Assembly: GCA_963743305.1 (NCBI GenBank)
Contig: CAVUPH010000014.1
Coordinates: 224,001 to 288,000, forward strand
Reading direction: 5' to 3'
DNA length: 64,000 bases
Origin: an uncultured delta proteobacterium
Lineage (GTDB): Bacteria; Desulfobacterota; RBG-13-43-22
The position numbers and the translations under genes are program-made. How positions within the stretch are numbered: position 1 is the stretch's first letter; the number at the start of each line of letters is the position of its first letter. Below the pieces are notes generated by a model that saw only the letters and a list, made by a program, of their open reading frames with translations, was not told the DNA's origin and did no database searches. Shown in pieces: positions 10,272 through 48,800 of this stretch.

Positions 10272-10285
10272 TGAGGGGGCCCCGG

Positions 10286-12429: not shown

Positions 12430-12432
12430 ATC

Positions 12433-12921: not shown

Positions 12922-12958
12922 AGTTCCCAGGGACCGGCCTTCCTCTCCGAAGATCGTT

Positions 12959-13177: not shown

Positions 13178-13184
13178 AAAAATT

Positions 13185-25370: not shown

Positions 25371-26000
25371 TTATCCTTGCTTAAAGGCCATCCCGATCAG
25401 GGGATAGACCACCATTCCAGCTAAAACCGCCGCATCTTCGGCAATTAAATACCGGGCGATGCTGGCATCGAACAGAACGTTGCCGTCCGGTGGGAACTCG
25501 TCATCTCCGGCCCAGAGGATCAGGCAGACCGGGATCTTGGGGAAAGCCTGAAAACAGATACAGACATCCCCTTCCTCTCTTTCGACCCCGCCCTGTTGAA
25601 CCCCCAATTCGGCCAAGAGCCGAGGCCGGTGACCGAAAGTCTTGACCAGGGGCTCTTTGGCCCGCTGGACAAAAGCCGAGTAATAGAACTCGCCGGAAGG
25701 GATCTCTCGGAAGGTGATCCATTGTCCGGCCAACGGGATTCCCGGGGCCTTCAGCAGGTAATGGAGGATCAAAACCTGTTCCTGCAGGGAAAGCTCTTTG
25801 GCCGGGTCCGGTCCCTGAACCTGGCCTTCCGGCCAGGCTATGGTAATCGTCTTATCCATAAACTGAAGCTGCAGGCGAGTCCCGTCCGGTCCCTGTTGGC
25901 AGGCTGCCCCGCTGAGGACAGCCGCCTGTTGGGGGTCCTGCTTGGCCCACTCCTCCCGGGCCAGTGCCAGGGCATTCTTATAATCGTCTATTCGGGACAT
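25371..26000 (-). CDS. DUF3786-family protein
   Basis: LILHYLL, WITFREIPSG.FY, P......W.GDDEFP....LFD.....L..ED. Confidence 0.85.
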   Translation of the reverse strand: MSRIDDYKNALALAREEWAKQDPQQAAVLSGAACQQGPDGTRLQLQFMDKTITIAWPEGQVQGPDPAKELSLQEQVLILHYLLKAPGIPLAGQWITFREIPSGEFYYSAFVQRAKEPLVKTFGHRPRLLAELGVQQGGVEREEGDVCICFQAFPKIPVCLILWAGDDEFPPDGNVLFDASIARYLIAEDAAVLAGMVVYPLIGMAFKQG

Positions 26001-28327
26001 GAAGCGTCCTTTATCCGGCACAAGGTGCAGAGGGTCTTATCTTTCAAGTCAATAATCCGGTATCCCCTGGCGCAAATCTGGTCACGAATCCGGTCGGCCT
26101 CGGTGAACTCTTTGCGCTGCCGGGCCTGCTCCCGTTGCTCCAGCATATCCCGCACTTCTAAAGGGAGCTCCCGGTCCGGAAAATCAAAAATTTCCAATAC
26201 GGTGTTGGTCTGCTTTAAGACCGAATCGATCTCCAGGAACTCTTCAGGGGTAATCCGCTTTTCAATGAACACCGGATTCAGAGCGCGGATGAGTTTGAAG
26301 AGGGCCGACAGGGCCGCCGCAATATTCAGATCGTCGTCCATGGCCCGCTTAAACCGGGTTTTGAAAAGATAAAGGGCCTCGCCGACCTCCGGATGCTCTT
26401 CTTGCCCCGCTTGCTGGGAATAAAGTTTCTGGACGAATTCATCCAGGCGTTTTAATGTCTTCCGGGACGTCTCCAGGGTTTTAAGAGAAAAATGAAGGGG
26501 TTTGCGATAGTGAGTGGACAGCAGCCAGTACCGGACTTCCCGACCGGTGTAGCCCTGGTTCAAAAGGTCCCGCAAGGTGATCACATTCCCGCCGGCCGGG
26601 GAAATCTTTTTCCCTTCCACGTAAACCAGATCGCTGTGCAGCCAGTAGTTCACGAATTTCTTGCCGGTGGCCGCTTCGCTGATGGCGATTTCGTTTTCAT
26701 GATGGGGGAATACCAGATCCATCCCGCTGGTATGGATGTCAAAGGTTTCTCCCAAATATTTTAAGGCCATGGCCGAACATTCCACATGCCAGCCCGGACG
26801 CACATTCCCCCACTCGGTAACGAAATAGATCCCTTTCTTGAGTTCCGAAAGGTTGGTGCGCTTCAGCAAAGTGAAATCCCGGGGGTTGTCTTTTTCATAT
26901 TCATCCAGGTCTACGGTTTTCCCGAGCTGGATTTTTTTTAAGTCAACCCGGGACAAGTGGCCATAAGGCTTAAAACGGGAGATATCAAAGTAAACCGAGC
27001 GGAACTTTTCATAGGCATACCCTTTTTTCAAGAGTTCCCGGGACAGGGCGATCATGTCCTCCACGTGCTCACTGGCCTTAGGATAATGGGACGCCCGTTT
27101 AATCCGCAAGGTGTCGATATCGCTTAAAAACGCCTGGGTGAAATACCCGGTGAAGGCCTCCAGGGTCTGGTTGGCTTCTTCGGCTCCGCGTATCGTCCGG
27201 TCATGAAGGTCGGTAATATTCATGACATGTTGGACTTCCAACCCCTTGAATTCCAGGTAGCGGCGCAGCAAATCGGCCATGACAAAGCGGCGGCAATTCC
27301 CCAGATGAATCAAAGCGCTGACAGTGGGACCGCAGGAATAAATGGAAACCCGGTTTTCCTTGAGGGGGACAAAATTTTCCTTTTCCCGGCTCAGGGTGTT
27401 ATAAAAAACCAGCCCGTTTTTTTCCTTTTCATCGAAGAGCGTGGTGCTCAGATAGCGTTCCCCGCCGTCCGGGCAGATGACCACAATCAGGCCTTTCTTG
27501 AGTTGCTGGGCCTTTTGGAGGGCTACGAATACGGCTCCTCCTGAACTCATCCCCAGCAGAAGGCCTTCTTCCCTGGCCAGCTTCCGGACCGTTTCAAAGG
27601 CCTCTTCATCCTCCACGTTGACCACTTCGTCCAAAATACTCTTGTCATAGATACCGGGCTTATACGATTCCTTCATATTTTTCAGGCCCTGGATCTTATG
27701 ACCCAAATAAGGCTCCACGCCGACTATTTTTATGTTCGGGTTAAATTCCTTGAGCCGCTTGGTCAGGCCCATCAGAGTTCCGGTGGTCCCCATGGTGGCC
27801 ACCACCATGGTCACCTTGCCCCCGGTCTGCTCCCAGATTTCCCGGCCGGTGCCGTGGTAGTGGGCCATGATGTTGTCCTGGTTATTAAACTGGTCCGGCA
27901 AGAAATAGCGTTCCGGGTTCTCCCGAGCCATTTGATAGACCTTTTCGATGGCCCCATCGGTGCCCAGGTGAGCCGGCGTCAGGAGGATCTTGGCCCCGTA
28001 GGCCCGGAGGATCTTTTGGCGTTCAATGCTGGCCGATTCGGGCATAGCCAGAAGCAGCGGATACCCCCTGACGGCAGCTACCAGGGCCAGGCCGATTCCG
28101 GTGTTTCCCGAGGTGGCTTCAATAATGGTTTTATCCTTAGTCAAGGTGCCGCTTTTTTCCGCACCCTCCACCATGGACAAGGCGACGCGGTCCTTGATCG
28201 ATCCGCCAGGATTAAAGGACTCGATCTTAGCCCAGACCGCCGCCTTCTTATTGAGATTAAGTCGATTCAATTTGATCAATGGGGTATGGCCGATGAGGCT
28301 GGTTATGTCGGGAAAGGCTTGTTTCAT
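25988..28327 (-). CDS. cysS: Cysteine synthase (CysK/CysM) - cysteinyl-tRNA synthetase fusion
   Basis: N-term NPGGSIKDR (PLP Lys), EATSGNTG, GTTGT, DGGERYLST; C-term CGPTV..HLGN, PGWHVECSAM, FPHHENE, DDDLN. Confidence 0.92.
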   Translation of the reverse strand: MKQAFPDITSLIGHTPLIKLNRLNLNKKAAVWAKIESFNPGGSIKDRVALSMVEGAEKSGTLTKDKTIIEATSGNTGIGLALVAAVRGYPLLLAMPESASIERQKILRAYGAKILLTPAHLGTDGAIEKVYQMARENPERYFLPDQFNNQDNIMAHYHGTGREIWEQTGGKVTMVVATMGTTGTLMGLTKRLKEFNPNIKIVGVEPYLGHKIQGLKNMKESYKPGIYDKSILDEVVNVEDEEAFETVRKLAREEGLLLGMSSGGAVFVALQKAQQLKKGLIVVICPDGGERYLSTTLFDEKEKNGLVFYNTLSREKENFVPLKENRVSIYSCGPTVSALIHLGNCRRFVMADLLRRYLEFKGLEVQHVMNITDLHDRTIRGAEEANQTLEAFTGYFTQAFLSDIDTLRIKRASHYPKASEHVEDMIALSRELLKKGYAYEKFRSVYFDISRFKPYGHLSRVDLKKIQLGKTVDLDEYEKDNPRDFTLLKRTNLSELKKGIYFVTEWGNVRPGWHVECSAMALKYLGETFDIHTSGMDLVFPHHENEIAISEAATGKKFVNYWLHSDLVYVEGKKISPAGGNVITLRDLLNQGYTGREVRYWLLSTHYRKPLHFSLKTLETSRKTLKRLDEFVQKLYSQQAGQEEHPEVGEALYLFKTRFKRAMDDDLNIAAALSALFKLIRALNPVFIEKRITPEEFLEIDSVLKQTNTVLEIFDFPDRELPLEVRDMLEQREQARQRKEFTEADRIRDQICARGYRIIDLKDKTLCTLCRIKDASCPE

Positions 28328-30550: not shown

Positions 30551-31555
30551 TTATGTCTTAATAACAGGAACGTCCGTTTTCCGAGCGGTTACCCTTCGAT
30601 CCTTGATATGGGAAAAAGGAGGCACGCTGACGCTCTCATCCAGAACTGCATTTTCAAGGATTACCTGGGAAGACACCAGACAGCGTCTGCCAATGCGTGT
30701 TCGGCCTGCGATAACCGTGAAGGATCCAATGGTGGTGTCCGGTCCGATTTTAACGGTCTTTTCGATATAGGTATTTTCCGGATCCAATAAAGTGACCCCT
30801 TGTTTCATCCATTCCGCGTTGATTTGCCTTCTCAGGATCTGGCCGGTTCGGGCCAATTCCGTTCGATCATTGATCCCCAGTACTTCCTCGGATTGAGGAT
30901 GGAGCAGCACCGAAACCGACTGCCCGGATTCCCGGGCTAGTTGGATGACATCGGTCAAATAATATTCCCCCTGCCGGTTTTTTCGGGAGAGCTTAGGCAG
31001 GGCGGCAAAAAGAAATCCGGAGTCAAAGCAATAGATCCCGGCATTCACTTCCTGAATCAGACGTTCTTCCGGGGTGGCATCTTTTTCCTCAACGATTCGC
31101 TTTAGCTCGCCCTGGGGATCCCGGAGGATGCGACCGTAGCCCAGCGGCTGAAGTAATCGGGTGCTCAACAGCGTAACCGGGGATTTCTTCTTCCGGTGGG
31201 TTCGAATGATTTCTCCCAGGGTCTCCTTCTTGAGCAAAGGAACGTCTCCGGACAAGACCAGGATTATTCCGGGAAAAGAAGACAGAACCCTGGAGGTCTG
31301 CCGCACCGCGTGGCCGGTCCCCAACTGGGGGGTCTGGATGACGAAGGTCAAACCCGGACGGTCAAAAGCCTGGCGCACCTGTTCCGCCTGGTGGCCGATG
31401 ACCACCACCGTTTTTTCGGGCCTCAGAGCGTTGGCCGCGTCCAAAACGTAGCCTAATAACGGCCGTCCCAACAAAGGATGGAGGACTTTGGCCCGGTCCG
31501 ATTTCATCCGGGTCCCTTTTCCGGCCGCTAAAATGATAATCGCTAAGGAAGACAT
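30551..31555 (-). CDS. glmU: GlmU-family uridylyltransferase with shortened hexapeptide domain
   Basis: LAAGKGTRMKS, QLGTGHAV, GYGRI, EEKDA, EYYLTD; only a few hexapeptide turns follow; 334 aa. Confidence 0.85.
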   Translation of the reverse strand: MSSLAIIILAAGKGTRMKSDRAKVLHPLLGRPLLGYVLDAANALRPEKTVVVIGHQAEQVRQAFDRPGLTFVIQTPQLGTGHAVRQTSRVLSSFPGIILVLSGDVPLLKKETLGEIIRTHRKKKSPVTLLSTRLLQPLGYGRILRDPQGELKRIVEEKDATPEERLIQEVNAGIYCFDSGFLFAALPKLSRKNRQGEYYLTDVIQLARESGQSVSVLLHPQSEEVLGINDRTELARTGQILRRQINAEWMKQGVTLLDPENTYIEKTVKIGPDTTIGSFTVIAGRTRIGRRCLVSSQVILENAVLDESVSVPPFSHIKDRRVTARKTDVPVIKT

Positions 31556-33512: not shown

Positions 33513-35132
33513 ATGCGTCATCTCTTCAAAGGCTGCAATAACCATCTGCTCATCTTATTGAGTTATTCCCTTTTGACTTTTCTCTTTACCTATCCTTTAC
33601 CTGTTCAAATGGGAACATCCCTTTATGGGCATGAATTGGTCGGCTTCAATGTCGACCCCTATGCCGAGATGGAACGTTTCCAAAGGGTCAAACAAACCTT
33701 TCTGGCCACCGGAAAGCTTTGGTTTTCTCCTTTTATCCACCCCCTGGTGGCAGTTCCCGGAGCACTCTTAACCGAGGCTTTTGATGAGGTTGTTGCTTTT
33801 AATCTATTACTCCTAATCAGTTTTCCTCTGGCCGGGTTTTTTACTTACCTCCTCGCGTATCAGCTTACTCAAAAACCCTTCCCTTCCTTTTTTGCCGGCC
33901 TGGTTTATTCCTTTTCCCCTTACCACTGGGTCCATGCCTATTATCATTTGAGCCTTTCTCAGATCCAGTGGTTCCCCCTCTATTTGTTGAGCCTTATTCT
34001 GTTTTCCCAAAAAAAGTCTTTTCCCCGAGGCCTCCTGGTTATGGGTTCTCTGCTCGTCCTGGTCTTGACCAACTACTATTATGCCCTCTTCGGCCTGCTC
34101 CTGACCATTCTGTTTATCCTCTATCACGGGGGGTTCCTTTATGTGAACCGGGGTCAGAAGGTTTTCCCGCACGCTTCTTTCTGGGTCCTGCTGGGAGTCT
34201 TGACTTTGGCCGGCCTGCTATTCTCATTATATTTCTATAATCATCTGGTGCTGATTTACCATAACCTGCCCTCTTTCAGCGCCCGTTACCCGGATCTCTT
34301 TCGGTACGGCTCCCGACCCTGGGGATTTATTGTCCCACCCCAAGACAACCCCTTCTTAGGCTGGATTGGAAAGAACTACATCCATTCCCGACTGGAAGGG
34401 GGGACTTTGGTCGAGCATACCTTGTACCTGGGGTTGGTCCCCCTGCTCTTGTCCATTCTGGCAGTATATAGCGGGCTCCGGGGAAAACCAAAGCCCTTCG
34501 CTCAAAGTCCTTCCTATTATCTCGGCTTTTTCGGAATCCTATTCATCTTGGCCCTTATTTTTTCCCGGCCTCCGCTGACCACCGTTGGGGGGTTGAAGAT
34601 TCCCCTGCCGGCCTACTACCTTTACCCGGTCTTCCCCATGTTCCGTTCCTATGCCCGCTTCGGCCTTTTGGCCTATCTGGCCCTGGCCCTTCTGGCGGCG
34701 GGCGGCCTCACCCTGCTCCAGACCCGTTGGCCCAAAAACTATTGGATTCCGGCTTTAGCCTTTCTTTTGCTGGTCATCGAATATGCCAATCTTCCCCCCT
34801 GGCGGTACCGGCCCATCCTCCCCACCCAAGCCCATCGGTATCTTGCTGAAAAGGTTAGGGATGTGAAAGTGGTCGATTATTTTCCACAAAAATTTTATGA
34901 CCTCCCGCCCATCCGCAAGCGGATGAACAACCATTTGCTGACGGGCCGGGAAATGGCGGCCTTTGCCCTGGTCAATCTTTCTCGGCCTGACCTCTTCCCA
35001 AGACTACGCCTCCAAGGAGTATCTTATGCCATCTTCCCTCCCGATCGCCTCGGACTTTTAGGTGAGAAAGGGCCCCCTCCGGTGATGCGTTTCCCGGATT
35101 CGGTTCTCTTCCGAATCGATCCCTTCCCTTAA
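33513..35132 (+). CDS. Multi-pass membrane protein, GT-C glycosyltransferase-like (YfhO-related)
   Basis: About a dozen hydrophobic segments; YLL..LT......AG..YSFSPYH, YLG, FR.YARF patterns; soluble C-terminal domain. Confidence 0.65.
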   Translation: MRHLFKGCNNHLLILLSYSLLTFLFTYPLPVQMGTSLYGHELVGFNVDPYAEMERFQRVKQTFLATGKLWFSPFIHPLVAVPGALLTEAFDEVVAFNLLLLISFPLAGFFTYLLAYQLTQKPFPSFFAGLVYSFSPYHWVHAYYHLSLSQIQWFPLYLLSLILFSQKKSFPRGLLVMGSLLVLVLTNYYYALFGLLLTILFILYHGGFLYVNRGQKVFPHASFWVLLGVLTLAGLLFSLYFYNHLVLIYHNLPSFSARYPDLFRYGSRPWGFIVPPQDNPFLGWIGKNYIHSRLEGGTLVEHTLYLGLVPLLLSILAVYSGLRGKPKPFAQSPSYYLGFFGILFILALIFSRPPLTTVGGLKIPLPAYYLYPVFPMFRSYARFGLLAYLALALLAAGGLTLLQTRWPKNYWIPALAFLLLVIEYANLPPWRYRPILPTQAHRYLAEKVRDVKVVDYFPQKFYDLPPIRKRMNNHLLTGREMAAFALVNLSRPDLFPRLRLQGVSYAIFPPDRLGLLGEKGPPPVMRFPDSVLFRIDPFP

Positions 35133-35357: not shown

Positions 35358-36503
35358 ATGCCCGACTATCGACCCAGGATGGATCTGGAATCCGTACTCT
35401 TGGACGACGAATTAATGATCTTTGATCCGGTCCGCGACGAAACCCATATCTTAAACGAAACCGCTGCCGAGATCTGGCGGTTGCTGACCGAGAAAAAATC
35501 GTTGCCCGAAATATTGAATCATTTTTTCGAACACCATGGGACTGAGGACAAGGAAGACCTCCGGAAAATTCTTCAAAGTACCTTGATCCGATTTAATCAA
35601 AAAGGTCTCCTGATCCCAACAGGCCCCTCCAAGTCAAAACAAGAGAAAGACGCTGAACTTGAGGACGCCTTGTCCCGGCAGGAGCGACTGCTGTCCGAAA
35701 CCCCCGACGATCCCCTGGTACTCGGCAACCTGGGGGTTCTCTATATTCAATCGGGTCGCTGGCCGGAGGCCGAAGCGTTACTGGTTCGGGCCCGGGGGCT
35801 GGAACCGACTAATGCAGCCTTGGCCTTTAACCTGGCATCCCTTTGGCATCGCCTGGATCGGTCCGCGGAGGCCTGGGAAATACTGGAAAGAGTCGACTCC
35901 CAGCATCCCGGCAATGTTCACCTCCTGAGCCTTTCCGGAAAGATATTGACGGCCTTGCGCCGTTTGGACAGCGCCGAAGATAAATTCCTTCAAGCCTTGG
36001 CCATTAATCCGGAATTACTCAATCTGTACAATGAACTGGCTTTGGTCTACCTCCTGCTGGACCAACCGGAGGCGGCGGAAGCCCAACTCACGGCAGCCCT
36101 CAAACGATCCCAAGTTTATTCGGATACTTTCCGGAACCTGGGAAACCTCCGTTTGAAAGAAAACAATCCGAAGGCCGCGGAAGGGTATTTCCGGCAGGCA
36201 CTGGAATTAGATCCCGGAGACGTTTTGGCCCGGTATGCATTGGCCTGGATTTATTTCCAGCGGAGGGAGTTCGGCCAAGCGGTTCAGGAAGCGGAGTCCT
36301 GTCTTCAGCAAAGTCCGACCTGGCTGCTTCCCTATGAATTCTTGGTTCAGGTTTATCAAACCCGGGGAGATCGGTTCCAGGCCCTGTTGGTCTATAGCCG
36401 CGTCCGTAGGGCCGTCCCGGATTTCAGTCGGCAAGAGTTCCCTTTCCTGGCGACCCTGGAGCGGGCAGTCCTTAAAAATACCCCTGAGAATAAAAGGCGT
36501 TAA
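35358..36503 (+). CDS. PqqD-family RiPP recognition element fused to TPR repeats
   Basis: N-term about 85 aa LDDELMIFDP..DETHILNETAAEIWRLL.......I...GLL (PqqD/RRE), then TPR repeats (NLGVLY, ALAINP, NLGNL, ALELDP). Confidence 0.85.
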   Translation: MPDYRPRMDLESVLLDDELMIFDPVRDETHILNETAAEIWRLLTEKKSLPEILNHFFEHHGTEDKEDLRKILQSTLIRFNQKGLLIPTGPSKSKQEKDAELEDALSRQERLLSETPDDPLVLGNLGVLYIQSGRWPEAEALLVRARGLEPTNAALAFNLASLWHRLDRSAEAWEILERVDSQHPGNVHLLSLSGKILTALRRLDSAEDKFLQALAINPELLNLYNELALVYLLLDQPEAAEAQLTAALKRSQVYSDTFRNLGNLRLKENNPKAAEGYFRQALELDPGDVLARYALAWIYFQRREFGQAVQEAESCLQQSPTWLLPYEFLVQVYQTRGDRFQALLVYSRVRRAVPDFSRQEFPFLATLERAVLKNTPENKRR

Positions 36504-37773
36504 TGAAACCGGCTGTTGGTTTTATCCGCCACTTGTTTCAGTATATTGCCCAAGCGGATCGGATTGAGTCCTTTCAAGAATTTCTCGGGCGTCCAGAAAA
36601 TGGGCTCTCCTGGGGGGAGCTTTTCCATCTCCTTCAAATGCAGGGCCTCGCACCTTTCACCTATTACTCCCTGCGTGCCCCCGAGTGGCAGTCCCTACTC
36701 CCGGAAACTTTCCTGGCCCGATTAAAAAATACTTTTCGGGAAACCAGCCTCCAAAATTTCTTCCTTCAGCGGGAATTGAAGCGCCTCAACGAACATTTTG
36801 ATCTAGCCCGCTTGATCGTGGTCCCCCTTAAGGGGGCCAGTCTCATCAACCGGCTCTATCCGCTGCCCGGTCTTCGCCCCATGCAGGATATCGACCTGCT
36901 GATTCATGACCGGGACTGGGAAAAGGTCAAGCGGGTTCTGCTTACCGCCGGATATCAACCCCTCTCCGATCTGCCCGAAAAATGGGTTAAGGGTTTTCAT
37001 TTTCATGCCGCCTTTATCCTGCCGGAGCGTAACTTGGTGGTGGAAGTCCACTGGAACTTGACGGATGAACATCTCCTGCCGTTTGAATCAATGGAAGACC
37101 CTCTGGGACCGGGTCTATTTTTCTGAATCCACCAGATCCTGGTTTCTGGCTGACCGGGATCAGTTTCTTTACCAATGCCTGCACCTCTATAAGCACGGGA
37201 CCTTTAATGCCGTGCTGGCTCGGCACCCGATCGCTATGATCTCCTTTTCGAACCGCTAAGCGGAAACCGCCTGATCTGGTTTCTGGATCTCTGGCTGCTG
37301 ATGAAGGGTGAACCCCATCCGGACCTGGAAGGATTGATCCGGGAGGCGCAACACTGGCAAGTGGGACCGGCCCTCCATTCCGGCCTGGTCCTGACTCAAA
37401 ACTTATTCCAGCCCCTTCCTCAGTGGACTTGGCCTTTCGAGCAACCGCTGCCCGCTATCCCACGGGCAAAGTATTTCCTGCTGGCCCGTTTAGCGGACGG
37501 GAGCGGCCAGAGAAAAACGCTGGACCCTGGACCCTGCTTAAACGGCTGCAATCCCTCGATCAGCGCCTCCATGTCCGCCCTGTCCGGGCCCTGGATATGA
37601 TTGACCGCCTCCTTCCTTCATCGGACCAGCGACGGGAGTGGTCGGTGCGGCATTCCAGACGTTGGGTCCCTTTTTTATACCTGTTCGCTTTTCTCCAAGG
37701 ATTGGGTTTTGCTTTTTCCCGGGCCTCAATCCTGATTAAAATGAAAAGATACCGGGGCCTGAAAAAAACATGA
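36503..37773 (+). CDS. NTP_transf_5-family nucleotidyltransferase (three frameshifts)
   Basis: PLKGASL, RPMQDIDLLI, VEVHW, CLHLYKH, RLIWFLDL across fragments; shifts near 37083 (+1), 37228 (-1) and 37526 (-1) repair to 424 codons ending in an ATGA overlap with the next gene. Confidence 0.8.
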
Positions 37774-38951
37774 CCCTCTCCGATCAGCTTGCCAGGGAAA
37801 AATGGGGGGCACGGGCGGGCTATCGCCGGATTTATCTTTTTTTTGGCCACCCCATCGAGTTTTTAACCGACTCCGAGCCCGATTTCAGCGACTTTGATAC
37901 CATCTACCGCCGGTTCCAAAGGGGTCCGGAACACCATTCCTTTAAAGAGGAGATAAATCCTCTTTTTCTTTTGCGTGAGCGGAAGCATTCCGGCTATCTG
38001 CTCTATTTGAATAATCGGCTCTTCCAGGTCCCTGCTCCAACTAATCGGTTAGAGCTGTTTATGTATTTGCTCAATTACCTTTTGGATCGGACAGAGAATT
38101 TCTTTATGGTACACGGGGCGGCCCTGGCGGATCTGGACCATGGACTGATTATCGCCGCCCCTTCCGGTAGGGGAAAGTCCACCTTGACCTTGGAACTCCT
38201 AACCCGGGGAAAAAAATTTCTCTCCGACGAACTGGCCTTGATTTCCGTCCAGGACGGAGGGATCCAGGCCTTTCCCCGCGCCCTGGCCGTCAGCCGGGAA
38301 AATCTGAACAACGTTTTGTCCCGGAGAGGCGAAAGATTCCGTAAATTTTTGCCGGCCCTGGGGCGGGAAGGCCGGATGATGTTCGATGTGGAGGATCTTT
38401 TCCCCGGCCAGGTGGCCACGCACTGCCAACTCCGGAATATAGTTTTTGTCGAGCCCGCGACCCTGACCAAATCGGTAGCAAGCGGCATCCCCCTGGAGAT
38501 CGGGTTCACCGCCCTTCCCGAGGGCCTGTGCCGGACAATGATGGATATTCCGGCAATAAAAAAAGTGGATCAAATCCAGGCATTGCCCTACCCCATCCTT
38601 CGCCTGACCTGTCAAGCAGAAACAGCCCTGATGGCCCAGATCCAGGAGGTAGCGGCGACGCAGGGGGTGGGGATCTGCAGTTATTACCCCGAGGGGAAGG
38701 AAGGGATCGATTACCTGGCCACCCCGGACTTGATTAAATTGAAACCCTCGTCCGGGATCACCACCCTGCTCCGCTATGTCTTAAACATCCCGGCGCTCAC
38801 CCGTTCCTTCAGCGATTCGTCCGGCGGACGTCAGCGCCTCCTGTTTCGATTGGCCCAGACCACCCGAGGCGTTCAGTTTTATCGGCTCACACCGGGAATT
38901 CTTTCCCAAATGACGGACTTGATCGATGGAATTGCCCGGAGGGCATCTTAA
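37770..38951 (+). CDS. HprK-related P-loop kinase
   Basis: VHGAAL..., APSGRGKSTL Walker A, FLSDE, AFPR. Confidence 0.85.
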   Translation: MTLSDQLAREKWGARAGYRRIYLFFGHPIEFLTDSEPDFSDFDTIYRRFQRGPEHHSFKEEINPLFLLRERKHSGYLLYLNNRLFQVPAPTNRLELFMYLLNYLLDRTENFFMVHGAALADLDHGLIIAAPSGRGKSTLTLELLTRGKKFLSDELALISVQDGGIQAFPRALAVSRENLNNVLSRRGERFRKFLPALGREGRMMFDVEDLFPGQVATHCQLRNIVFVEPATLTKSVASGIPLEIGFTALPEGLCRTMMDIPAIKKVDQIQALPYPILRLTCQAETALMAQIQEVAATQGVGICSYYPEGKEGIDYLATPDLIKLKPSSGITTLLRYVLNIPALTRSFSDSSGGRQRLLFRLAQTTRGVQFYRLTPGILSQMTDLIDGIARRAS

Positions 38952-38985
38952 TGGACGGTAATGGAGGATTGTTCGCGAGGTTATC

Positions 38986-39576
38986 ATGATTGACTTCGCC
39001 GGAATCAGGGAGGAATCGGTTTCCGCCCTCCTGGCCGATTATCAGGTCCAGGGCCGGGAACAATGGTTTCCGATCCGGGGTCGAAGCATGAGACCCTTAT
39101 TACGGGAGGGGGATGAAATCCAGGTCCGTTTCTGCTTCCCGGAAAACATTCGGAAAGGGGACCTGGCCGTCTTTTGGGAAGGAAGGGTTTTGAAAGCCCA
39201 CCGGATCCTGGATATCTTCAAAACATCCCAAGACATCCTCTTTCTGGAAAAAGGAGACAGCAACCCTACCGCCAGCTATATTCCTTCTTCCCGGATCAAG
39301 GGCCTGGTTCAGGCCGTTCGGAAACCATGGGGGGTGGTTGGGTTGGATCGCGCCTGTTGGCGCTGGTGGAATCGGATGGTGTCCAGATCCGGGTATGGTT
39401 TTATCCGTGCCTTTGCTTTCTTCCCTTCCCCAGAAAAAGGAAAAACCGGTTCTCCCAGCGCTTACGGGCCATTCTGGGGATACCGGTCCTGGATCTATTT
39501 GCTCTTGTTCTTTCCTCTTTTCGAAGAAAGAATTCGAGCCTTTTTCATTTCTCGTTTTAACAGGGCGGGGAGATGA
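38986..39576 (+). CDS. S24/S26-family peptidase
   Basis: IRGRSMRPLLREGD (catalytic Ser), GDLAVF, AHRI, EKGDSN; no N-terminal TM anchor. Confidence 0.85.
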   Translation: MIDFAGIREESVSALLADYQVQGREQWFPIRGRSMRPLLREGDEIQVRFCFPENIRKGDLAVFWEGRVLKAHRILDIFKTSQDILFLEKGDSNPTASYIPSSRIKGLVQAVRKPWGVVGLDRACWRWWNRMVSRSGYGFIRAFAFFPSPEKGKTGSPSAYGPFWGYRSWIYLLLFFPLFEERIRAFFISRFNRAGR

Positions 39577-40018
39577 CACAGGAGCGGTGATTGCTGGAAT
39601 TCCCATCCTGATCCTGGATGAAAAAGTCAATAGTCACCGGTATCAGCTCCGGGGCCTCCAGTATTTCAACGCATTCCCCGGATTTCCCGCTCACACATGT
39701 CTGGTCGGTCAGCGGAGCGCAAGTCGTTGAAACACCGACCCGGCCGGTTTTGGCCGGGTAAATATAGGCATAGCATTTTTTTCCCCCCACCATGTCCCCG
39801 GCAATTTTCTGCCAGTCAAACTTCACCTGTATACGGGGCAGCGTTTCCGGGCATTCATTGTTGAAAGGGACTTCGGGGTTGCAGGTGAAGGTCGTCAGTT
39901 GAGGCGGGCTGTTGGTCGGAGGTCCATACTGGGTAATAATCGGGCCGACCAAATGGTCCAAGGTTGCCTGGTTATAGCTTTGAATCTCCGGTTTCAAAAA
40001 TACTTTCTTGGATTTCAT
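39557..40018 (-). CDS. Cys-rich protein with RiPP-like leader (putative RRE substrate)
   Basis: KKVFLKPEI leader, 8 Cys, GAGG RBS and own promoter-like sequence upstream. Confidence 0.7.
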   Translation of the reverse strand: MKSKKVFLKPEIQSYNQATLDHLVGPIITQYGPPTNSPPQLTTFTCNPEVPFNNECPETLPRIQVKFDWQKIAGDMVGGKKCYAYIYPAKTGRVGVSTTCAPLTDQTCVSGKSGECVEILEAPELIPVTIDFFIQDQDGNSSNHRSCVISPPC

Positions 40019-40083: not shown

Positions 40084-40114
40084 AATATATGCTCTAAAAT
40101 CAACCGGTTGTCAA
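40084..40114 (-). promoter_or_regulatory. Candidate promoter with overlapping IHF-consensus site
   Basis: Minus strand TTGACA-N17-CATATATT; AATCAACCGGTTG (40098-40110) matches WATCAANNNNTTR. Confidence 0.45.
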
Positions 40115-40177: not shown

Positions 40178-40462
40178 CTAATGGAATTTCTGTTCTCCCT
40201 GGTCGACCACCTTTATCGGGCCATATTGCCGTTCATATTTTTCCAGGTTATCCTTCAGGGCATTGATAATCCTTCTTAAATTGCTGGGGCTGACCATAAT
40301 GCGAGAGACTAAAAACGTCCCGCTGGGGGAGTTCAAGAGCCAGTCTAGGATAAACTCCTCCGGGCTGTGGGAAGCGATCAAGGAATTGCTGTAACGGCCG
40401 CGCATCATTTCGTCGCCGGTATTGATTTGGATCTGCTGAGGGGGGTTGTTCGGGTTGGTCAT
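40178..40462 (-). CDS. DUF3467-family protein
   Basis: GRYSN....HSPEEFILD...VSRIMVSP......L..NL.KYE..YG.I; AAGGAGG RBS. Confidence 0.88.
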   Translation of the reverse strand: MTNPNNPPQQIQINTGDEMMRGRYSNSLIASHSPEEFILDWLLNSPSGTFLVSRIMVSPSNLRRIINALKDNLEKYERQYGPIKVVDQGEQKFH

Positions 40463-40608
40463 GGTGGCCTCCTTAATATAACCACTAAATTTTGTTAGCA
40501 TATGCTTTTATTACCTGATAAAAAAGAAAAAACGTTTATCCACCCTTCTTACCTGCGGTGAGGTCCTCGGTCTTTTCCGCGGCTATCGCCGATGAGCTTA
40601 TCTTAACC

Positions 40609-41499
40609 ATGCGACTCCGGCACCTTGTCGATTACCTGAAGTTGTTACGAATTCATCATTATGTCAAGAATGCTTTTATCTTTCTGCCGCTTTTTTTTGC
40701 CGGTGAATTTTTGTTGGTAGACTCCCTTATTTTAAATTTGCGCGCTTTTTTTGTCTTTTCTCTCGTTGCCAGCTCTATTTACATTTTTAACGACCTAAAG
40801 GATCTTCAGGAAGATCGCGAACATCCGACAAAACGACTGAGACCTCTGGCCAGCGGAGTTATTTCTCAATCGGCGGCCTGCCTTACCATGGCACTTTTGA
40901 TCAGCTTAGGGTTGGGTCTTTCCGCCTACTGGTTTCATTTTGATTTTCTGGCTTTAATTGTCTTTTATTTGATCATCAATATGGGTTACTCCCTAAAGTT
41001 GAAACATGTGCCCCTAGTGGATATAACGATCATCGCCTTCGGTTTCGTTATCAGACTTTTCGTCGGTTCAGTAACGGCCAAAGTGCCCTTGACCTTCTGG
41101 ATCATCACCCTGACCTTTCTACTCGCCTTGTTTCTCGGTTTCGCCAAAAGAAGGGATGATATCCTGATTTATAACCGCAGCCACAAGAAAACAAGAAAGA
41201 GCTTAGACGGGTATAATCTGGAATTTGTAAACGCAGGAATGGTGGTGGTTGCCGGAACAATGATCGTTTCCTATTTTATGTATACCCTATCGCCGCAGAC
41301 GATCTCAAAATTGGGCACAGATAAGCTCTATCTGACAACCCTATTCGTTATCCTAGGTACGCTAAGGTATCTCCAAAAAAGCTTCGTTGAAGAAGAGAGT
41401 GGATCCCCGACAAAGATATTACTGAAGGACTTTTTTTTGCAGACCACGATTTTCCTGTGGTTATTCTCCTTTACGGTAATCCTTTATCTGAGGCGGTAG
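40609..41499 (+). CDS. UbiA-family polyprenyl-phosphate phosphoribosyltransferase (DPPR synthase-like)
   Basis: R.HHYVKN, YIFNDLKD..EDREHPTKR.RPLASG, YSL.LKH, AKRR, GSPT. Confidence 0.85.
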   Translation: MRLRHLVDYLKLLRIHHYVKNAFIFLPLFFAGEFLLVDSLILNLRAFFVFSLVASSIYIFNDLKDLQEDREHPTKRLRPLASGVISQSAACLTMALLISLGLGLSAYWFHFDFLALIVFYLIINMGYSLKLKHVPLVDITIIAFGFVIRLFVGSVTAKVPLTFWIITLTFLLALFLGFAKRRDDILIYNRSHKKTRKSLDGYNLEFVNAGMVVVAGTMIVSYFMYTLSPQTISKLGTDKLYLTTLFVILGTLRYLQKSFVEEESGSPTKILLKDFFLQTTIFLWLFSFTVILYLRR

Positions 41500-41501
41500 G
41501 A

Positions 41502-42593
41502 ATGGCAAAATCGGTGGTAGCGGTCATCAAGAGTACGCCAGGTCAGGTCCTTTCAGATATCGGAGAACTGATGGATCAGGCCGCCTTCCGCAGTTTACTG
41601 TTGAAGGAGGTCGTCACCATTTTGAAGGACAATATTTCATGGCATTTCCCTTTTCTGAGCGCCAATACCACGCCTTGGCAGCTTGAGGGGGTCATCAGGG
41701 CGCTAAAAAAAGCAGGCTACGAGGAGGTCGTTGCTGTCCACAATAATACGGTTGTTACCAATCCCTATAAAGGCGGGACGTTGAACAGGCTTGGCCCGGT
41801 GTATCGCCGCTATGGAATCAAGGAACTCTACAATTTTCTACCCGCGGATACAAAATGGGTAACCTACCGGCCCAAGACAAAAATGAAGATTCTGGACAAG
41901 CTCTATCCCGAGGGCATCCGTATACCCGACTATTTCATCGGCAAAAACATCATCCACCTTCCTACCGTCAAGACCCACATTTATACCACAACCACGGGCG
42001 CCATGAAAAATGCTTTCGGGGGTCTTTTAAATACAAAAAGGCACTACACCCATAGCTGGATCCACGAGACTCTCGTCGATCTGCTGGCCATTCAGAAGGA
42101 GATCCACACCGGCATATTCGCCGTCATGGATGGAACAATCTGCGGCAACGGTCCGGGTCCTCGGACGATGATCCCCGTCCAGAAGGATTATCTTCTGGCC
42201 AGCGGCGACAGCGTGGCCATTGATGCTGTGGCCGCAAAAATGATGGGTTTTGACCCCATGGGCATTCCCTATATTCGCCTGGCTCACGAAGCGGGTTTGG
42301 GTTGCGGAAAGCCCGAGGAGATTGAAGTGGTCGGAGAGGATGTTTCCCGAGTAAATTTCGGCTTTTCCGTCGGAGACAATATGGCCAGCAAGGTAGGAAA
42401 TTTGTTTTGGTTCGGGGCACTAAAGTCTGTTCAGAAATCCTTTTTCCGGACACCCCTGGTGTATGCCTTCATTTTCGGCTCCTTCCTCTACCATGACTAC
42501 CTGTGGTGGCCGTTCAAGGGCAAACAGATCCAGAAAGGGACGGCCAAAGGGACGAGCTGGGGCAAACTTTTTGGTTCTTACGCCGGCGAATAG
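41502..42593 (+). CDS. DUF362-domain protein
   Basis: LKDNISWH, NTTPWQLEG, HLPTVKTH..TTTTGAMKNAFG, G.GP, DSVAIDA. Confidence 0.85.
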   Translation: MAKSVVAVIKSTPGQVLSDIGELMDQAAFRSLLLKEVVTILKDNISWHFPFLSANTTPWQLEGVIRALKKAGYEEVVAVHNNTVVTNPYKGGTLNRLGPVYRRYGIKELYNFLPADTKWVTYRPKTKMKILDKLYPEGIRIPDYFIGKNIIHLPTVKTHIYTTTTGAMKNAFGGLLNTKRHYTHSWIHETLVDLLAIQKEIHTGIFAVMDGTICGNGPGPRTMIPVQKDYLLASGDSVAIDAVAAKMMGFDPMGIPYIRLAHEAGLGCGKPEEIEVVGEDVSRVNFGFSVGDNMASKVGNLFWFGALKSVQKSFFRTPLVYAFIFGSFLYHDYLWWPFKGKQIQKGTAKGTSWGKLFGSYAGE

Positions 42594-42855: not shown

Positions 42856-45800
42856 ATGAACCTAAAAAATTCACAACCTGAAAATAAAGGGGTGGTCAAG
42901 CGCTGGATTCCCCGAAAACCGGACGGCCAAAGACAACGGCTACGGCAACCCCGGGTTATACTAGCAGTAGTCGCGTTTCTTCTCTTAAGCCTTCCTTACC
43001 TGGCGGGGGCCACCACGACCATCAACGAACAGTTCAGTCCGGACGTGATCAATCAGGGCGATGCGTCTCTCTATACCATTTCGATCACTAACGATGATAC
43101 GATTAATCTCACCAGTGCCATGGTGACGGTCTTCCTCGACAATACCACAGCCGCCCCCAACACCTCGGGCGGTCACATAACCATCGCCAGCGGGACGGTC
43201 GTCGACAATACCTGCGGTTTTTCTGTGGACAGTGCGGGTGCCGGAACGAGCAAGATCGTGCTGACCGGCGGAACGATTCCTGCGGGCTCGCCGGCCACTC
43301 CCTCGGTCTGCACCTTCTCCCTGGAGGTCACCTCCGTCACATTAAGCACATACCATGCGGTCATCCCGGCTAACACGACCCCGGATGCCACTACTTCCGG
43401 GTATGCGGCCACGGGGAATTCCATTATCGTCCATAACACGACATCCGCCGACATCACCCTGCAAGTGAACGCCCTCTCAGCGCCCACCGGCAACAAGGCC
43501 TTCTCGCCCTCTCCGGCGGTCGCCGGCGATCCGATCACGCTGACCATTACGGTCAGCAATCCCAATGCCACCAGCACGATGCCGCTGACGACCTTCACCG
43601 ACAGCCTGCCTGCAGGCATGGTCGTGGCCGGCACGCCCGGTGCTTCCGTCAACTGCACCGGAGCGGGGGCCGTCAATGGGGCCTTTGCACCCCTGGCCAA
43701 CGATACCTCGCTCACGCTTACTGGCGGAACGATAGGGCAGGGAGGTGCCTGCACCCTCTCCGTCCAGGTGGTTGTTCCGACCATCTCCGGCACTACCCAG
43801 AGCTTCGACAATAGTCTGGGAAGCGGCGCCATCGGAAATAGCCGCGGTCTTACCAGCCCGGCCTTTAATAGGACCCTGACCGTCAATTCTCCCATCAATG
43901 TGACCAAGAGTTTCGCCACGTCTCCGATACCGGCGGGCCAGCCTTCCCGGATGACGATCACTATTACCAACAACAGTACGGTCAATGCCCTGGACATTAC
44001 GCAATTCAACGACCATCTGACCGGCACCACGCTGAAGGTCCTCAATCCCTCCAGTTCCCCGGTTGCCGGCATTACGCCCAGCGTCACTTGCGACGGCACT
44101 GGATCTGTCAACGGCTCACTCACCTACACCGTGGACACACTGGATTCCACCTTGACCCTCACCAACGCCAAAGCCGGTCCCAAATCCGGCGGCACCGGCA
44201 AGTGCATAATCATCGCTGACCTGACCTCCACGGTGGATGGAGCGCATACCAATACCCTCCCTGCCGACGCAGTAGTCAGCACCGGCGGTTACCACAGCCC
44301 CAGTGCCTCCGATACCCTGACGGTCAACGCCCAATTGACGGTGGATAAGACCGTATCGGTGAACCAGGTGGCTCCCGGACAGTGGACGAGGTTCACGGTC
44401 ACCATTTACAATTGGTCCGGCGCCCCCGTCACGAATCTGAGCTTCCGCGACGACCTGCCCTCAAGCGGCGGGAGCCAGATGGTGCTCGACGGCGGCAATC
44501 CGATCTCTTCTTTAGGTTGTACCGGTGGGACCTGGACAGGGGCTCCCGGCGAGGCGACGCTTCAGTGGAGCAACGGGACGGTAGCGGGCGGCTCCGGCAC
44601 CTCGCCGGGGATCTGCACGATCGTCTTTCAGACCAGGCTGCCTATTTCCACCCCAACGGGACTTACCTTCGGCAACCAGATTCCAGCTTGGGATGGCACC
44701 CATGGTGCAGGGGGGGACGGTCCCGGCGGACCCGTAGTCAACCCGGCATCCAGCCCTGCTGCCAACGTATTGAGTGTCGATGCGGTGGCGATCACCAAGA
44801 CCTTTGCCCCGGCCTCCATCGCCCAGGGCGGAATTTCGACCCTGACCCTAACCATCCGCAACCGGGTGGTAACCGGCGGCCTGAGCAATGTGAACCTAAC
44901 CGACAATTTCCCGGCAGGCATCACGCTGGCCGCCAATCCCGCCGCGACCAATAGCTGTAATGGCACACTCCAAGCATTTCCCGGAGACAGCAAACTGATC
45001 TTGACCGACGGCAGCTTAGCCGCGCGGCCCAACGACGGGCAGGAAACGACCTGCACGATTACCGCGAGGGTTACCGGTACGACTGTTGGGACCTACAATA
45101 ACACTATCTCGGGGGCGACGTATGGCCTGGTGCCGACGACGATACCCGACAGCAATACGGCCACGCTGACCATCGCGACCGGTCTATCCGGCGCCAAGTC
45201 CTTCAACCCGACCAGCGTCACTTCAGGCGGCACCTCGCGGGTCACGATTACCGTGACTAACGGCTCCAACGGCGATCTCACCAATGTGTCGGTGGATGAC
45301 AATACCTTCGGCGCAGGCCTGACCGTGGCTAATCCGGCCAATGCCGCCACGAGCTGTCCGGGCTCTCCGACGATGGTCGCCAACCCGGGGGCAACCCGTG
45401 CGCAGTTGCTGGGCGCTACCCTGGCGGCCGGCGCGAGTTGCGATTTTTCATTCGATGCCGAGACCAGCGGCGCCGGTCCCTGGAGCAACACTATCCCCAG
45501 CGGCAAGATCACGAGCGCCGAGGGCCCGGCCAACACCGCGGCCATCTCAGCAGCACTCAGCGCTGTTTCTACCCAGATCAACATCAACAAGTCTTTCAAC
45601 CCGGTCGTTGTGACCGGCGGCGTCCCCTCCACCCTAACCCTGACTCTGACTAACCCTTCCAATACAACCCTGCACGGCATCGGCTTCACCGATGTATTTC
45701 CGACCGGGATCCAGGTATATTCCGTTCCCGCCGTGACTTCAACCTGCCCCGGCGGAAGGGTCACCGCCATCCCCGGTGACGGCCAAGTCAGCCTCGCCGG

Positions 45801-48800
45801 CGCAACCCTGGCCTCCGGCAGTACCTGTGTCGTTACCCTTCAAACGACTTCGGTCAAATTCCTTAACCTGACCAACAATATACCGGCCGGCGCCATCGAG
45901 AGCTTCGAGGGCTATACGAACCCGCTGTTGGTCTCGGCCACGCTTTCGACCCTGCAGGGACTGGGCGTCATGAAGGCCTTCTCGCCGGCCTATGTGACCC
46001 CTGCTACGGTCACAAAACTCAAGATGTGGCTGGTCAGCACCTTTGACCCCAACGCCCCGACCCCCCTGACCCTTACCGGCGTCTCCTATACCGATACCCT
46101 TCCCGCGAATGTTTTTGTATCGGCTGCGCCGGATGCCACCACCACCTGTCCAGGACCCGGTGGCGTCGGAAGCGCCACCATAACCGCGAATCCAGGAGCT
46201 GCCCTTATCACGGTCTCAGATGCCCACATCGTCCCCGGCGCGGTCTGCGAGATTTCGGTTAATGTCGTAGCTCCCGGCTCCATCGGCACCTACACCAATA
46301 TTATCCCGGCCGATGCCATCACCACCCTCCAGGGACCGACGAACAGCGAACCCGCCACCGCCAGGCTCTATGTAGTCAATCAGCCCACGATCAACAAGGC
46401 CTTTAGTCCCAAGGTGGTATCCGTGGGCGGCACAAGCACATTAACTGTCACCATAAACAACGGCGCGGGCATTCCGCTGACCGGTCTCTCCCTTACCGAT
46501 ACTTTACCGGCGGGACTGGCCATTGCAGGCAATCCGGCCGTGGCCACTACATGCTCCAACGGAAGCGTTACCGCTGATCCCGGCAGTGACGCTCTCTCGC
46601 TCAGCGGCGCCGTCGTCCCGGCAAACGGCTCATGCACCTTTTCTGCCAGGGTTGTGGCCAATTCCCCTGGGGTCTTTATCAATAATATCAACGCCGGGGA
46701 GTTGGTCAACAACGAGGGCCTCACCAATAGCGGTCCGGCCAACGACACCCTGACGGCGCGCCTGACGCCCACGGTGAATAAAACCGTTCAACCCGGTCTC
46801 GATCGCCTCCGGCAGCTCCTCGACCCTGACTATAACGGTCGGCAACAGCAATGGCGGGCCGATTACACTTACCGCGCCTCTGGTCGACGCCCTGCCGGGC
46901 AACGTGGTGGTAGCCGATACGCCCAATGCCAGTACTACCTGCGGTCCGGGTACGCTCTCCGCCAGTCCGGGGGACATTTCCCTCAGCTACGCCGGGGATA
47001 TCCCTGATGGCGGCTGCACAATATCCGTCGACGTGACTTCCAGCGTCTGCGGTGTGCATACCAACAGTATAGCGGCGGGACAACTTCAGACCTCTGTCGG
47101 AAACAACCAGGATCCTGCCTTTGCCGACTTGGGGGCTTGTAGCGCGCTCGTCCCCACAATAAGCAAGTCCTTCAGCCCCGGCACGATCCCGGTGAACGGA
47201 ACCTCTACGCTGACCATAACCCTGGCCAACCCGAATGCCTCGGCCTTGACGCTTTCTTCGGATTTTTCCGACAACCTGCCGGGTACCGTGCGGGTGGCGT
47301 CAACGCCCGCGGCCGGGACCACCTGTCCGAACGGCACCGTTACCGCCGTTGCCGATGCGACCGGCATCACCCTCCAACGCGGCAGCGGCCCCTTCACCCA
47401 GATCCCGGCTTCCGGTAGTTGCACCGTCACCGTTAACGTCACCTCGGCGGCGGAAGGCAGTTATACGAATACCATCCTGGTCGGTGACCTGCAGACCGAC
47501 GGCGGCAGCAACAGCCAGCCGGCAATAGCGTCCCTGGTGGTGCAGGCACCCATCCCGCCGACAGTGGATAAATCCTTTACTCCCAATACGATCAACCCCG
47601 GCGGCCTCTCGACGCTGACCATCTCCTTGGGCAACAGCAATGGCGGATCAATAAATCTGACCGCCAATTTCATTGATACGCTTCCTGCCGGAGTGACCGT
47701 GGCCGCTACGCCGAACATCCGCGGCACCTGTACGATCGGCAGTATCACGGCCGGAGCCGGCACCGGTATTATTTCCTACGCGACAGGCGCGTCCATTCCC
47801 TCCGGCGGTTGTACAATCCTGGTGGATGTGACGGCGACCAGCAATGCGGGTTCACCCTATACCAATACCATCCCGGTCGATGCCTTGCAGACCAGTGCGG
47901 GCAACAATGGCGCCTCGGCAACGGATAGCCTCTTCGTGAACCCGCCCCAGCCGCCGTCGGTCAGCAAGTTCTTCTCGGCGCCAAAATTTCTCTCTGCCGA
48001 CACGGTGACGCTCACCCTCGCCCTGGGCAACGGCAATAGTACTGCTGCCACCTTGACAGCCGATCTCGTCGACACGCTGCCCTCGGGTCTTATTATCGCT
48101 ACGCCCAACGGTTTAGTGACCAACTGCGCCGGTACGGTGCTGGCACCGGCCGGAGGCAGTACCCTGACTTACCAGAGCGGCGGCACTATCCCGGGCAACG
48201 GGGGCTGCGCTATCTCGGTGACCCTCAAAGCGGCGGATGGCTTACCCCATCACCTGTTTACCAACACCATTCCCGCCGGGGCCTTACAGACGAACTTCGG
48301 CGACCAATGCCGTCGCCTTCCACCGCCACCGTCCAGGTCCTGGTCCGGCCGACGGTCGCCAAGACCTTTAACCCTTCGACCATCAAGTACAACCAAAATT
48401 CAACCCTGACTCTCACGCTTGGGCAATATCAACGATGTCCCGATCACGCTGACTCAGGACCTGGTCGATACCCTGCCGGCGAACGTCTTCCTGGCCACGC
48501 CGGCGACCATCGGCGGCACCTGTATTAGCACCAATCCCGGCAAAGTAATCGCCGCCAACGGCGGCGGCACAGTCACCTACCAGAGCGGGGCCACCATACC
48601 CGCGGGCGGTTGCACCATCACGGTCCCCGTGACCTCCACCACCATGGGCGATTACACCAATACCCTCAACGTCGACGATCTCAAGACCGATGCCGGGACC
48701 AACCCCGCGCCGGGCTCGGCGCAACTGATCGTGCTGGCCCCGCCGACGTTGAGCAAGGCCTTCTCCCCGACGTACATCATCGCCGGCGCGCCCTCGACCC

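Follow-up and report, generated by a model that had tools for sequence, protein, structure and literature searches.

Linear polyphosphorylated peptides (LPPs) are a family of peptides synthesised by the ribosome and modified after translation (RiPPs) described from Bacillota by Popov et al. (Nat Commun, May 2026; PMC13381572), whose lppA-K-B-S-D-N clusters share a core made up of a signal peptidase I (SpI)-like peptidase, a discrete RiPP recognition element (RRE), an HprK-like kinase, a nucleotidyltransferase (NTP transferase) plus an exporter that resembles MsbA. These clusters are cyclase-free and often lie inside capsule loci, and their precursors are 35-200 aa in length, with a conserved N-terminal YxxPxVLxHQxIxFETxxS and variable C-termini (PMC13381572). 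LppK puts several phosphates onto Ser3 of the core, and LppS (S29/H68/D93) cuts after Thr(-1) solely when LppB presents the leader; deletion of lppN brought no detectable change in the product, and in the parts of the paper drawn on here LppN showed no activity (PMC13381572). The precursor can also be encoded elsewhere in the genome, as columns and examples in Supplementary Data 1 indicate, and the same parts of the paper report LPPs as restricted to Bacillota and give their final products and biological role as not known (PMC13381572). Related components act in paeninodin/pseudomycoidin-type lasso clusters, in which a PqqD-type RRE reads a Y/WxxPxL leader, an HprK-like kinase phosphorylates the precursor and an enzyme of the NTP_transf_5 fold extends the phosphate with hexoses (PMC8498205, in the parts drawn on here). 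Here, we describe a locus at positions 35358-40018 of a 64-kb stretch of DNA from an uncultured delta proteobacterium (contig CAVUPH010000014.1, positions 224,001 to 288,000; hereafter the window), in which a cassette of four genes encoding an RRE fused to tetratricopeptide repeats (RRE-TPR), an NTP_transf_5 protein, an HprK-like kinase and an S26-type peptidase meets the gene for a 153-aa protein, p153. We judge it probable that this locus is a non-Bacillota variant of an LPP-type RiPP pathway and that p153 is its precursor.

Central to this reading is the N-terminus of p153, a protein without a match in Pfam or NCBIfam. Its family is small, comprising six clusters at 51-90% identity together with P0038 (51%), P0039 (53%) and P0041 (33%). 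The leader-like segment covers residues 1-31 (nt 39926-40018), and a Pro-rich linker connects it to a beta-sandwich with eight Cys at residues 40-153. The ten family members that were aligned all share one architecture, in which a conserved N-terminal block ([FW]-x-x-P-E-[IV]-[QK]-[ST]-[YI] ... L-x-x-[LE]-[IV]-G-P-x-x-[TA]-Q-Y) is followed by a linker of variable length and a domain with eight conserved Cys; [FW]xxPE[IV] is kept by 10/10. The AlphaFold2 (AF2) model has a confidence score (pLDDT) of 50-70 up to residue 38, a stretch in which residues 17-24 form a short helix, and of about 90 over the beta-sandwich, for which a Foldseek search against the Protein Data Bank (PDB) returned generic immunoglobulin (Ig)-like beta-sandwiches only, at TM scores <0.5, and a search of the ESM Atlas gave no usable match. 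The N-terminus carries neither a hydrophobic (Sec) nor a twin-arginine (Tat) signal. Relative to its ortholog in the closest public relative (locus L001), p153 has a ratio of nonsynonymous to synonymous substitution rates (dN/dS) of 0.09, indicating strong purifying selection.

Set against the LPP leader given in the supplement of PMC13381572, the p153 N-terminus, FxxPxIxxYNQxxLD, falls into register with it: F7 corresponds to Y(-16), P10 to P(-13), I12 to V(-11), Y15-N16-Q17 to H-Q-Q and L20-D21 to F(-3)-E(-2), H22 (H/Q/E/N across the family) takes the place of T(-1), and the invariant G25 that of S(+3). The first-pass annotation of this DNA had already read this N-terminus as a leader, and the shared register strengthens that claim. 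Of the 2255 start-defined ORFs of the window, p153 alone shows the LPP-register pattern, as does its L001 ortholog alone among 24349 ORFs in the 42 loci considered below; the pattern was devised after p153 had been seen, so the match shows specificity and is no independent test. It had also been proposed that the substrate is a folded protein rather than a short peptide. The core is indeed modelled as folded, and the proposal is less novel than it seemed given the 35-200 aa precursors of LPP systems (PMC13381572).

A candidate to bind such a leader is the 381-aa RRE-TPR protein, which matches Pfam PqqD at residues 18-85 (32.0 bits, cutoff 23.4), followed by many TPR models, and which reaches 34.2 with TIGR04353 (cutoff 35). 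In the AF2 model the RRE spans residues ~1-87, with strands at 4-6, 11-15, 18-23 and 28-32, helices at 34-44, 49-60 and 65-81 and a further strand at 85-87, and a TPR superhelix of ~12 repeats occupies residues 94-373. The order of elements is the same as that published for the LppB/PbaB1 RRE (PMC13381572, as far as it is set out in the parts drawn on here). Foldseek results for the model were dominated by TPR proteins, among them superhelices like that of O-GlcNAc transferase, whose substrate-binding TPR the superhelix of the 381-aa protein resembles. By analogy, we predict that this protein serves as an LppB-like leader-binding adaptor.

The kinase retains the features expected to matter for activity, given its P-loop (APSGRGKST) and the invariance of H115, G133, G135, K136, S137, D153 and E154 across 15 homologs, and on sequence grounds we infer that it is active. 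It matches Hpr_kinase_C (24.3 bits, E=2.6e-5, cutoff 33.3) and the HprK_rel_A model TIGR04352 (58.4 bits, E=5.7e-16, cutoff 200), and carries an extra C-terminal region of ~200 aa; relatives of this long form are present in loci L001, L002, L012 and L024. Its motifs and the published description would make it LppK-like. The 196-aa peptidase gave no Pfam match at E<=0.01, and its NCBIfam match is to TIGR02228 (sigpep_I_arch; 40.1 bits, E=3.2e-10, cutoff 51.85). It aligns with human SEC11A/C over GRSMRP, AHRI and KGDSN, placing Ser34, His72 and Asp91 on the SEC11A/C catalytic motifs, and these three residues are invariant in 4/4 cassette peptidases (window, L001, L002 and L024). The protein has no N-terminal membrane anchor. 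These features suggest a homolog of archaeal/endoplasmic reticulum-type signal peptidase I (S26B, LppS-like), and so a candidate leader peptidase. The domain labels of the first-pass annotation thus hold for the PqqD-TPR protein and for NTP_transf_5 (32.0 and 121 bits), while its HprK-like and S26 labels correspond to matches under the curated cutoffs. That a cyclase-free pathway built from an RRE, an HprK-like kinase, NTP_transf_5 and an S26 peptidase is of a real kind, as had been supposed, has been shown experimentally for LPPs (PMC13381572).

To ask how far the cassette and p153 go together, we can turn to 42 loci gathered by a genome scan with a kinase alignment, seven of which (L002, L024, L012, L007, L010, L014 and L018) were scanned with Pfam and the other 35 with phmmer using the window proteins and with regular expressions. 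L001, a deltaproteobacterial metagenome-assembled genome (MAG) with a kinase 74% identical to that of the window, is fully syntenic over the neighbourhood, and p153, RRE-TPR and kinase genes are adjacent in it. Homologs of these three proteins also sit on database contigs of equal size (55631 for P0003/P0011/P0046, and 36829 for P0006/P0015), and p153 and kinase homologs in the database fall into matching tiers of identity (~90/74%, ~52/47% and ~33/25%), which is suggestive only. An S26-type peptidase was found by phmmer with the window proteins in 3/42 loci (L001, L002 and L024) and NTP_transf_5 in 19/42. In L002, large membrane proteins and genes for glycosyltransferases enclose the kinase, peptidase, transferase and PqqD genes, and in L012 a kinase and a PqqD protein lie within an XrtA exopolysaccharide locus. 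Every stop-to-stop segment of the window and of the 42 loci was searched with a leader hidden Markov model (HMM) and a whole-family HMM, and only the window and L001 gave matches. Leader-bearing ORFs picked up by regular expression in L002, L012, L024, L007 and L014 were rejected as shadow ORFs or internal starts. We infer that p153 and the cassette are linked from their adjacency in close relatives and from the resemblance of the leaders.

A number of observations weigh against p153 as the precursor in an LPP-type pathway. LppA Thr(-1) and Ser(+3) are His22 and Gly25 in p153, and the published system therefore does not allow cleavage site or acceptor to be predicted. The p153 gene runs towards the cassette from a promoter-like site of its own, and the two are thus not joined in an operon. 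Cassette-p153 adjacency was seen only in close relatives (kinases ~74% identical) that are syntenic over the entire neighbourhood, and no p153-like or leader-like ORF was found within +-10 kb of the L002, L012 and L024 cassettes. Both kinase and peptidase stay under every curated family cutoff, phmmer with the RRE against the PDB found no RRE chain, and neither ABC_membrane nor any ABC exporter was found among the 59 window ORFs that were scanned (13 at E<=0.01 and 46 at E<=1e-5 with Pfam; six ORFs of <100 aa were left out). To these must be added four frameshifts in the NTP_transf_5 gene, which may mean that the locus is decaying.

If p153 is a mere syntenic neighbour, with an N-terminal motif that has some other use, then the cassette could be an LPP-like or HprK/PqqD-type system acting on another substrate, encoded elsewhere or belonging to the envelope. 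Such an arrangement would account for the convergent gene with its separate promoter-like site, for the L002, L012 and L024 cassettes and for the missing acceptor Ser(+3), it has a precedent in the distantly encoded precursors of some LPP systems (PMC13381572), and across the wider kinase family 13 of the 39 loci that could be assessed have a different adjacent candidate, with a Tat-like signal. We nevertheless find it doubtful. p153 is the sole window ORF with the LPP-register motif (1/2255, with the post hoc pattern), the kinase and p153 homologs show the matching, if only suggestive, tiers of identity, and residues 1-31 of p153, which match the core in conservation, come out unstructured in the model and hold no Sec or Tat signal, so that they would otherwise go unexplained. 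We continue to favour p153 as the precursor.

The NTP_transf_5 gene differs from its neighbours in that it is broken. The first-pass annotation counted one intact nucleotidyltransferase gene here. In fact, the frame that opens at 36503 ends at 37126 after 207 aa, with a premature stop codon at 37124-37126, and homologous reading resumes in three further ORF pieces (37065-37259, 37301-37600 and 37423-37773); the match to PF14907 amounts to 121 bits for the first, 207-aa piece and to 18 bits for the next. The L001 ortholog is a single intact gene of 429 aa, and DNA alignment with it (84% identity) places indels at 37081 (+1), 37225 (-1), 37502 (+1) and 37528 (+1), all inside a 450-bp part of the gene and none in a long homopolymer. 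The frame-adjusted protein is 81% identical to that of L001 with a dN/dS of 0.27; the RRE-TPR, kinase and peptidase genes have values of 0.34-0.39. Since its four neighbours (3.4 kb) are undamaged, a real and gene-specific lesion can be argued for; there is no sign of relaxed selection on the frame-adjusted reading, and the breaks must therefore be very recent or else assembly errors. Indel errors in the assembly are possible because frame shifts are likewise present in a giant adhesin gene elsewhere in the window. The gene is probably a pseudogene or a local assembly error.

These lesions, with their concentration in one gene and the premature stop, could also be taken to mean that the whole locus is a decaying remnant whose original product is no longer made. 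We consider this unlikely, since the frame-adjusted reading shows no relaxed selection, assembly indel errors are possible in view of the adhesin frame changes, and the key residues of the kinase, peptidase, RRE and p153 are all kept. In addition, deletion of lppN had no detectable effect (PMC13381572), so loss of the transferase need not stop the pathway. The proposal that the cassette nucleotidylates its substrate fares less well: among the characterised relatives, the NTP_transf_5 enzyme adds hexoses to the phosphate (pseudomycoidin, PMC8498205) or showed no activity (LppN), in the parts of these sources drawn on here, and the window gene is frameshifted.

Taken together, the favoured LPP-type reading suggests the following sequence of events. 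p153 would be made with an N-terminal leader of ~31 residues that lacks a Sec or Tat signal, and the PqqD-type RRE of the 381-aa protein would bind F7-x-x-P10-x-I12 as an added beta-strand, if the crystal structure of LppB-LppA is taken as the model. The fused TPR superhelix might, more speculatively, scaffold the enzymes or hold the folded core. The kinase could then phosphorylate Ser/Thr near the leader-core junction, possibly repeatedly, and an NTP_transf_5 enzyme could decorate the phosphate, a step that has probably been lost in this genome because the gene is broken. Finally, the soluble SpI-like peptidase, with its putative Ser/His/Asp triad, would remove the leader in an RRE-dependent manner. 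p153 enters this scheme as an inferred substrate, given its convergent gene, co-occurrence seen only in close relatives and a Gly where the acceptor Ser(+3) would be. More broadly, and more tentatively, it is possible that leader-guided RiPP machinery matures the folded 8-Cys, Ig-like p153, with RRE-TPR having evolved as a clamp for protein substrates, and that the cyclase-free PqqD/HprK-like/NTP_transf_5 cassettes of many phyla represent one pathway which phosphorylates and then decorates small adjacent proteins (p153 here, twin-arginine proteins in HprK_rel_A systems), with the Bacillota LPPs as its short-peptide end.

The genes of the locus and further features of the window are collected in Table 1. 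The first-pass annotation had described the cassette as tightly linked and as ending tail-to-tail with p153, and the coordinates and overlaps read from the sequence bear this out: RRE-TPR and NTP_transf_5 overlap by TAATG (36501-36505), NTP_transf_5 and kinase by ATGA (37770-37773), 34 bp separate the kinase and peptidase genes (38951 to 38986), and the 3' ends of the peptidase and p153 genes share 20 bp. A GAGGA Shine-Dalgarno sequence lies ~9-13 nt ahead of the p153 ATG. The promoter-like element further upstream was not reported by a consensus promoter scan, whose spacer range was 16-18 nt.

Table 1. Coordinates of the locus and of other features of the window
Feature	Position	Strand	Product	Remarks
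RRE-TPR gene	35358-36503	+	381 aa	Intact ORF
NTP_transf_5 gene	36503-37773	+		Interrupted by four single-base indels
HprK-like kinase gene	37770-38951	+	393 aa	Intact ORF
S26-type peptidase gene	38986-39576	+	196 aa	Intact ORF
p153 gene	39557-40018	-	153 aa	N-terminus MKSKKVFLKPEI; convergent with the cassette
Putative promoter-like element, TTGACA-19 nt-TATATT	40084-40114	-		Upstream of p153; read from the sequence
Polytopic membrane protein gene	33513-35132	+	539 aa	Directly upstream of the cassette; syntenic in L001
DUF3467 gene	40178-40501	-		Same strand as p153, 159 bp upstream of it; syntenic in L001
DUF362 gene	41457-42593	+		Within ~3 kb of the cassette
Cysteine synthase-like/cysteinyl-tRNA synthetase fusion gene	25988-28327	-	779 aa	One ORF
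GlmU-like gene	30551-31555	-	334 aa	Hexapeptide-repeat region short
Giant DUF11/DUF7933 surface-protein gene	42856-50792	+		Split into ORFs 42856-47007, 46904-48409, 48419-49174 and 49149-50792

Beyond the locus, positions 1-24 kb of the window hold flagellar genes, after which come the cysK-cysS fusion, glmS, the GlmU-like gene, a DUF6178 gene and the 539-aa membrane protein; the cassette and p153 are followed by DUF3467, a UbiA enzyme like decaprenyl-phosphate phosphoribosyltransferase, DUF362 and the giant surface proteins. The 539-aa membrane protein has no Pfam or NCBIfam match and is 83% identical to its L001 ortholog; by BLASTP it is not similar to the two large membrane proteins flanking the L002 cassette. 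The DUF3467 gene has a dN/dS of 0.09 against L001, a constraint equal to that on p153. The giant adhesin gene changes frame at ~46790 and ~49150 relative to an uninterrupted 2705-aa ORF in L001, and these splits reflect either frameshift mutations or indel/repeat errors of the assembly. The cysK-cysS gene joins a pyridoxal phosphate-dependent cysteine synthase-like (PALP) domain to a complete cysteinyl-tRNA synthetase, which is an unusual fusion. The GlmU-like gene is a short form with no frameshift truncation, because its end lies 15 bp before glmS.

Paeninodin/pseudomycoidin-type lasso clusters share an HprK-like kinase and an NTP_transf_5 protein with the window, and it is thus conceivable that the cassette is the tailoring module of a lasso or radical-SAM (SynChlorMet-like) pathway with core enzymes beyond the 64-kb window. 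Such kinases and transferases do tailor paeninodin-type peptides (PMC8498205), and L018 is an ordinary cluster of this type, with B2, cyclase, ABC, two kinases and NTP_transf_5. A further point of contact is L024, from a Rokubacteria MAG, which is a radical-SAM-containing relative of the window cassette: here a SPASM radical SAM enzyme and DUF362 lie beside PqqD and two fusions, one of B12-radical-SAM and kinase and one of peptidase and transferase. However, no Asn_synthase, Transglut_core3, Radical_SAM or ABC_tran match occurs among the 59 scanned window ORFs, a scan that does pick up Asn_synthase and Transglut_core3 in L018. The first-pass annotation was therefore right that the window lacks a macrolactam cyclase, a transglutaminase-like B2 protease, a radical SAM enzyme and an ABC exporter as far as those 59 ORFs go, and the ORF list of the syntenic L001 likewise shows no cyclase, B2 peptidase or radical SAM enzyme. 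By analogy, the S26-type serine peptidase would be the leader peptidase in the window, as the dedicated SpI-like enzyme takes the place of B2 in LPP systems (PMC13381572), and the folded p153 core of ~120 aa is far above lasso length. For SynChlorMet in particular, in which the radical SAM/SPASM enzymes ScmE/ScmF accompany ScmC/ScmD, the ScmC/ScmD models are also not among the matches of the window kinase and PqqD proteins. We regard a tailoring role of this kind as highly improbable.

Two details of L024 can be added. The HprK-like kinase is apparently joined to a B12-binding radical SAM domain at 8288-10877 (+), where the frame changes near 10300-10640, and the S26-type peptidase at 10874-12628 (+) is apparently fused to NTP_transf_5; the SPASM enzyme and a Mur-ligase-like gene lie upstream. 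A DUF362 gene follows directly after that cassette (12651-13538, +), and its presence near both cassettes may be a coincidence or point to a recurring partner.

The HprK_rel_A, or HPr-rel-A, system (TIGR04352 and TIGR04353) of PEP-CTERM/XrtA exopolysaccharide loci, seen in L007, L010 and L014, resembles the window in combining PqqD, an HprK-like kinase and NTP_transf_5 in the absence of a cyclase. It differs in that the window proteins miss its cutoffs (kinase 58.4 vs 200, PqqD 34.2 vs 35), with a true member, L007, scoring 343, in that the window kinase is ~90 aa longer, and in having no S26 peptidase, with 0 matches outside L001, L002 and L024. It also has an adjacent candidate substrate of a different sort. 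In HprK_rel_A-type cassettes the adjacent gene encodes a product of 98-253 aa, in which an N-terminal extension precedes a Tat-like signal. Searching the same strand <=2.5 kb upstream of the kinase match, a regular expression found such ORFs in 17/39 assessable loci, and 13 were convincing by eye (L003, L004, L007, L008, L013, L014, L016, L019, L022, L025, L029, L036 and L042); those in L010, L011, L031 and L035 were judged spurious. This suggests the Tat-like neighbours as candidate substrates, which would be testable in a system that has long been annotated and has remained uncharacterised.

A functional likeness is offered by SodX, a soluble S26-family peptidase that cuts a short N-terminal propeptide off a folded cytoplasmic protein. 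SodX has no RRE, kinase or leader motif, and its likeness to the cassette peptidase is functional only. The L002 peptidase weakly matches NCBIfam TIGR02754, which we take to be this maturation protease of Ni-superoxide dismutase.

Closer in kind are the SpI-like peptidases with 'other' RREs that Supplementary Data 1 of PMC13381572 lists in sequence similarity network (SSN) clusters 3, 18 and 23, from a delta proteobacterium, Acidobacteriota, Schekmanbacteria, Desulfobacca and Thiolapillus. These are of the soluble S26B type with GxSMxP/HR/GD motifs and stand beside PqqD-like RREs, by eye the same architecture as the window peptidase; they differ in being catalogued only, with precursors marked 'ND'. 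Pairing of a peptidase with an RRE outside Bacillota is therefore catalogued and uncharacterised as far as that supplement goes.

In comparison with the LPP clusters themselves, as described in the parts of PMC13381572 drawn on here, several differences are evident. The host belongs to a deltaproteobacterial lineage and not to Bacillota, a TPR domain of ~280 aa is attached to the RRE whereas LppB is discrete, and no MsbA-like exporter (LppD) was found among the 59 scanned window ORFs. The leader has Phe for Tyr and is without Thr(-1)/Ser(+3), a conserved 8-Cys beta-sandwich stands as the core in place of the highly variable LPP tail, the precursor gene is convergent, and the transferase gene is frameshifted, though intact in L001. 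Against these stand the shared features: four of the five core enzyme types, likened by domain and description, occur in one tight block on the + strand, there is no cyclase, the candidate leader holds [Y/F]xxPx[V/I] in one register, the surroundings are cell-envelope/polysaccharide genes, and protein-sized precursors (35-200 aa) are possible in both. If true, a deltaproteobacterial version would take the LPP family into a further phylum and widen it to substrates of protein size, and its conserved, folded core would provide a tractable handle on the purpose of the phosphorylation.

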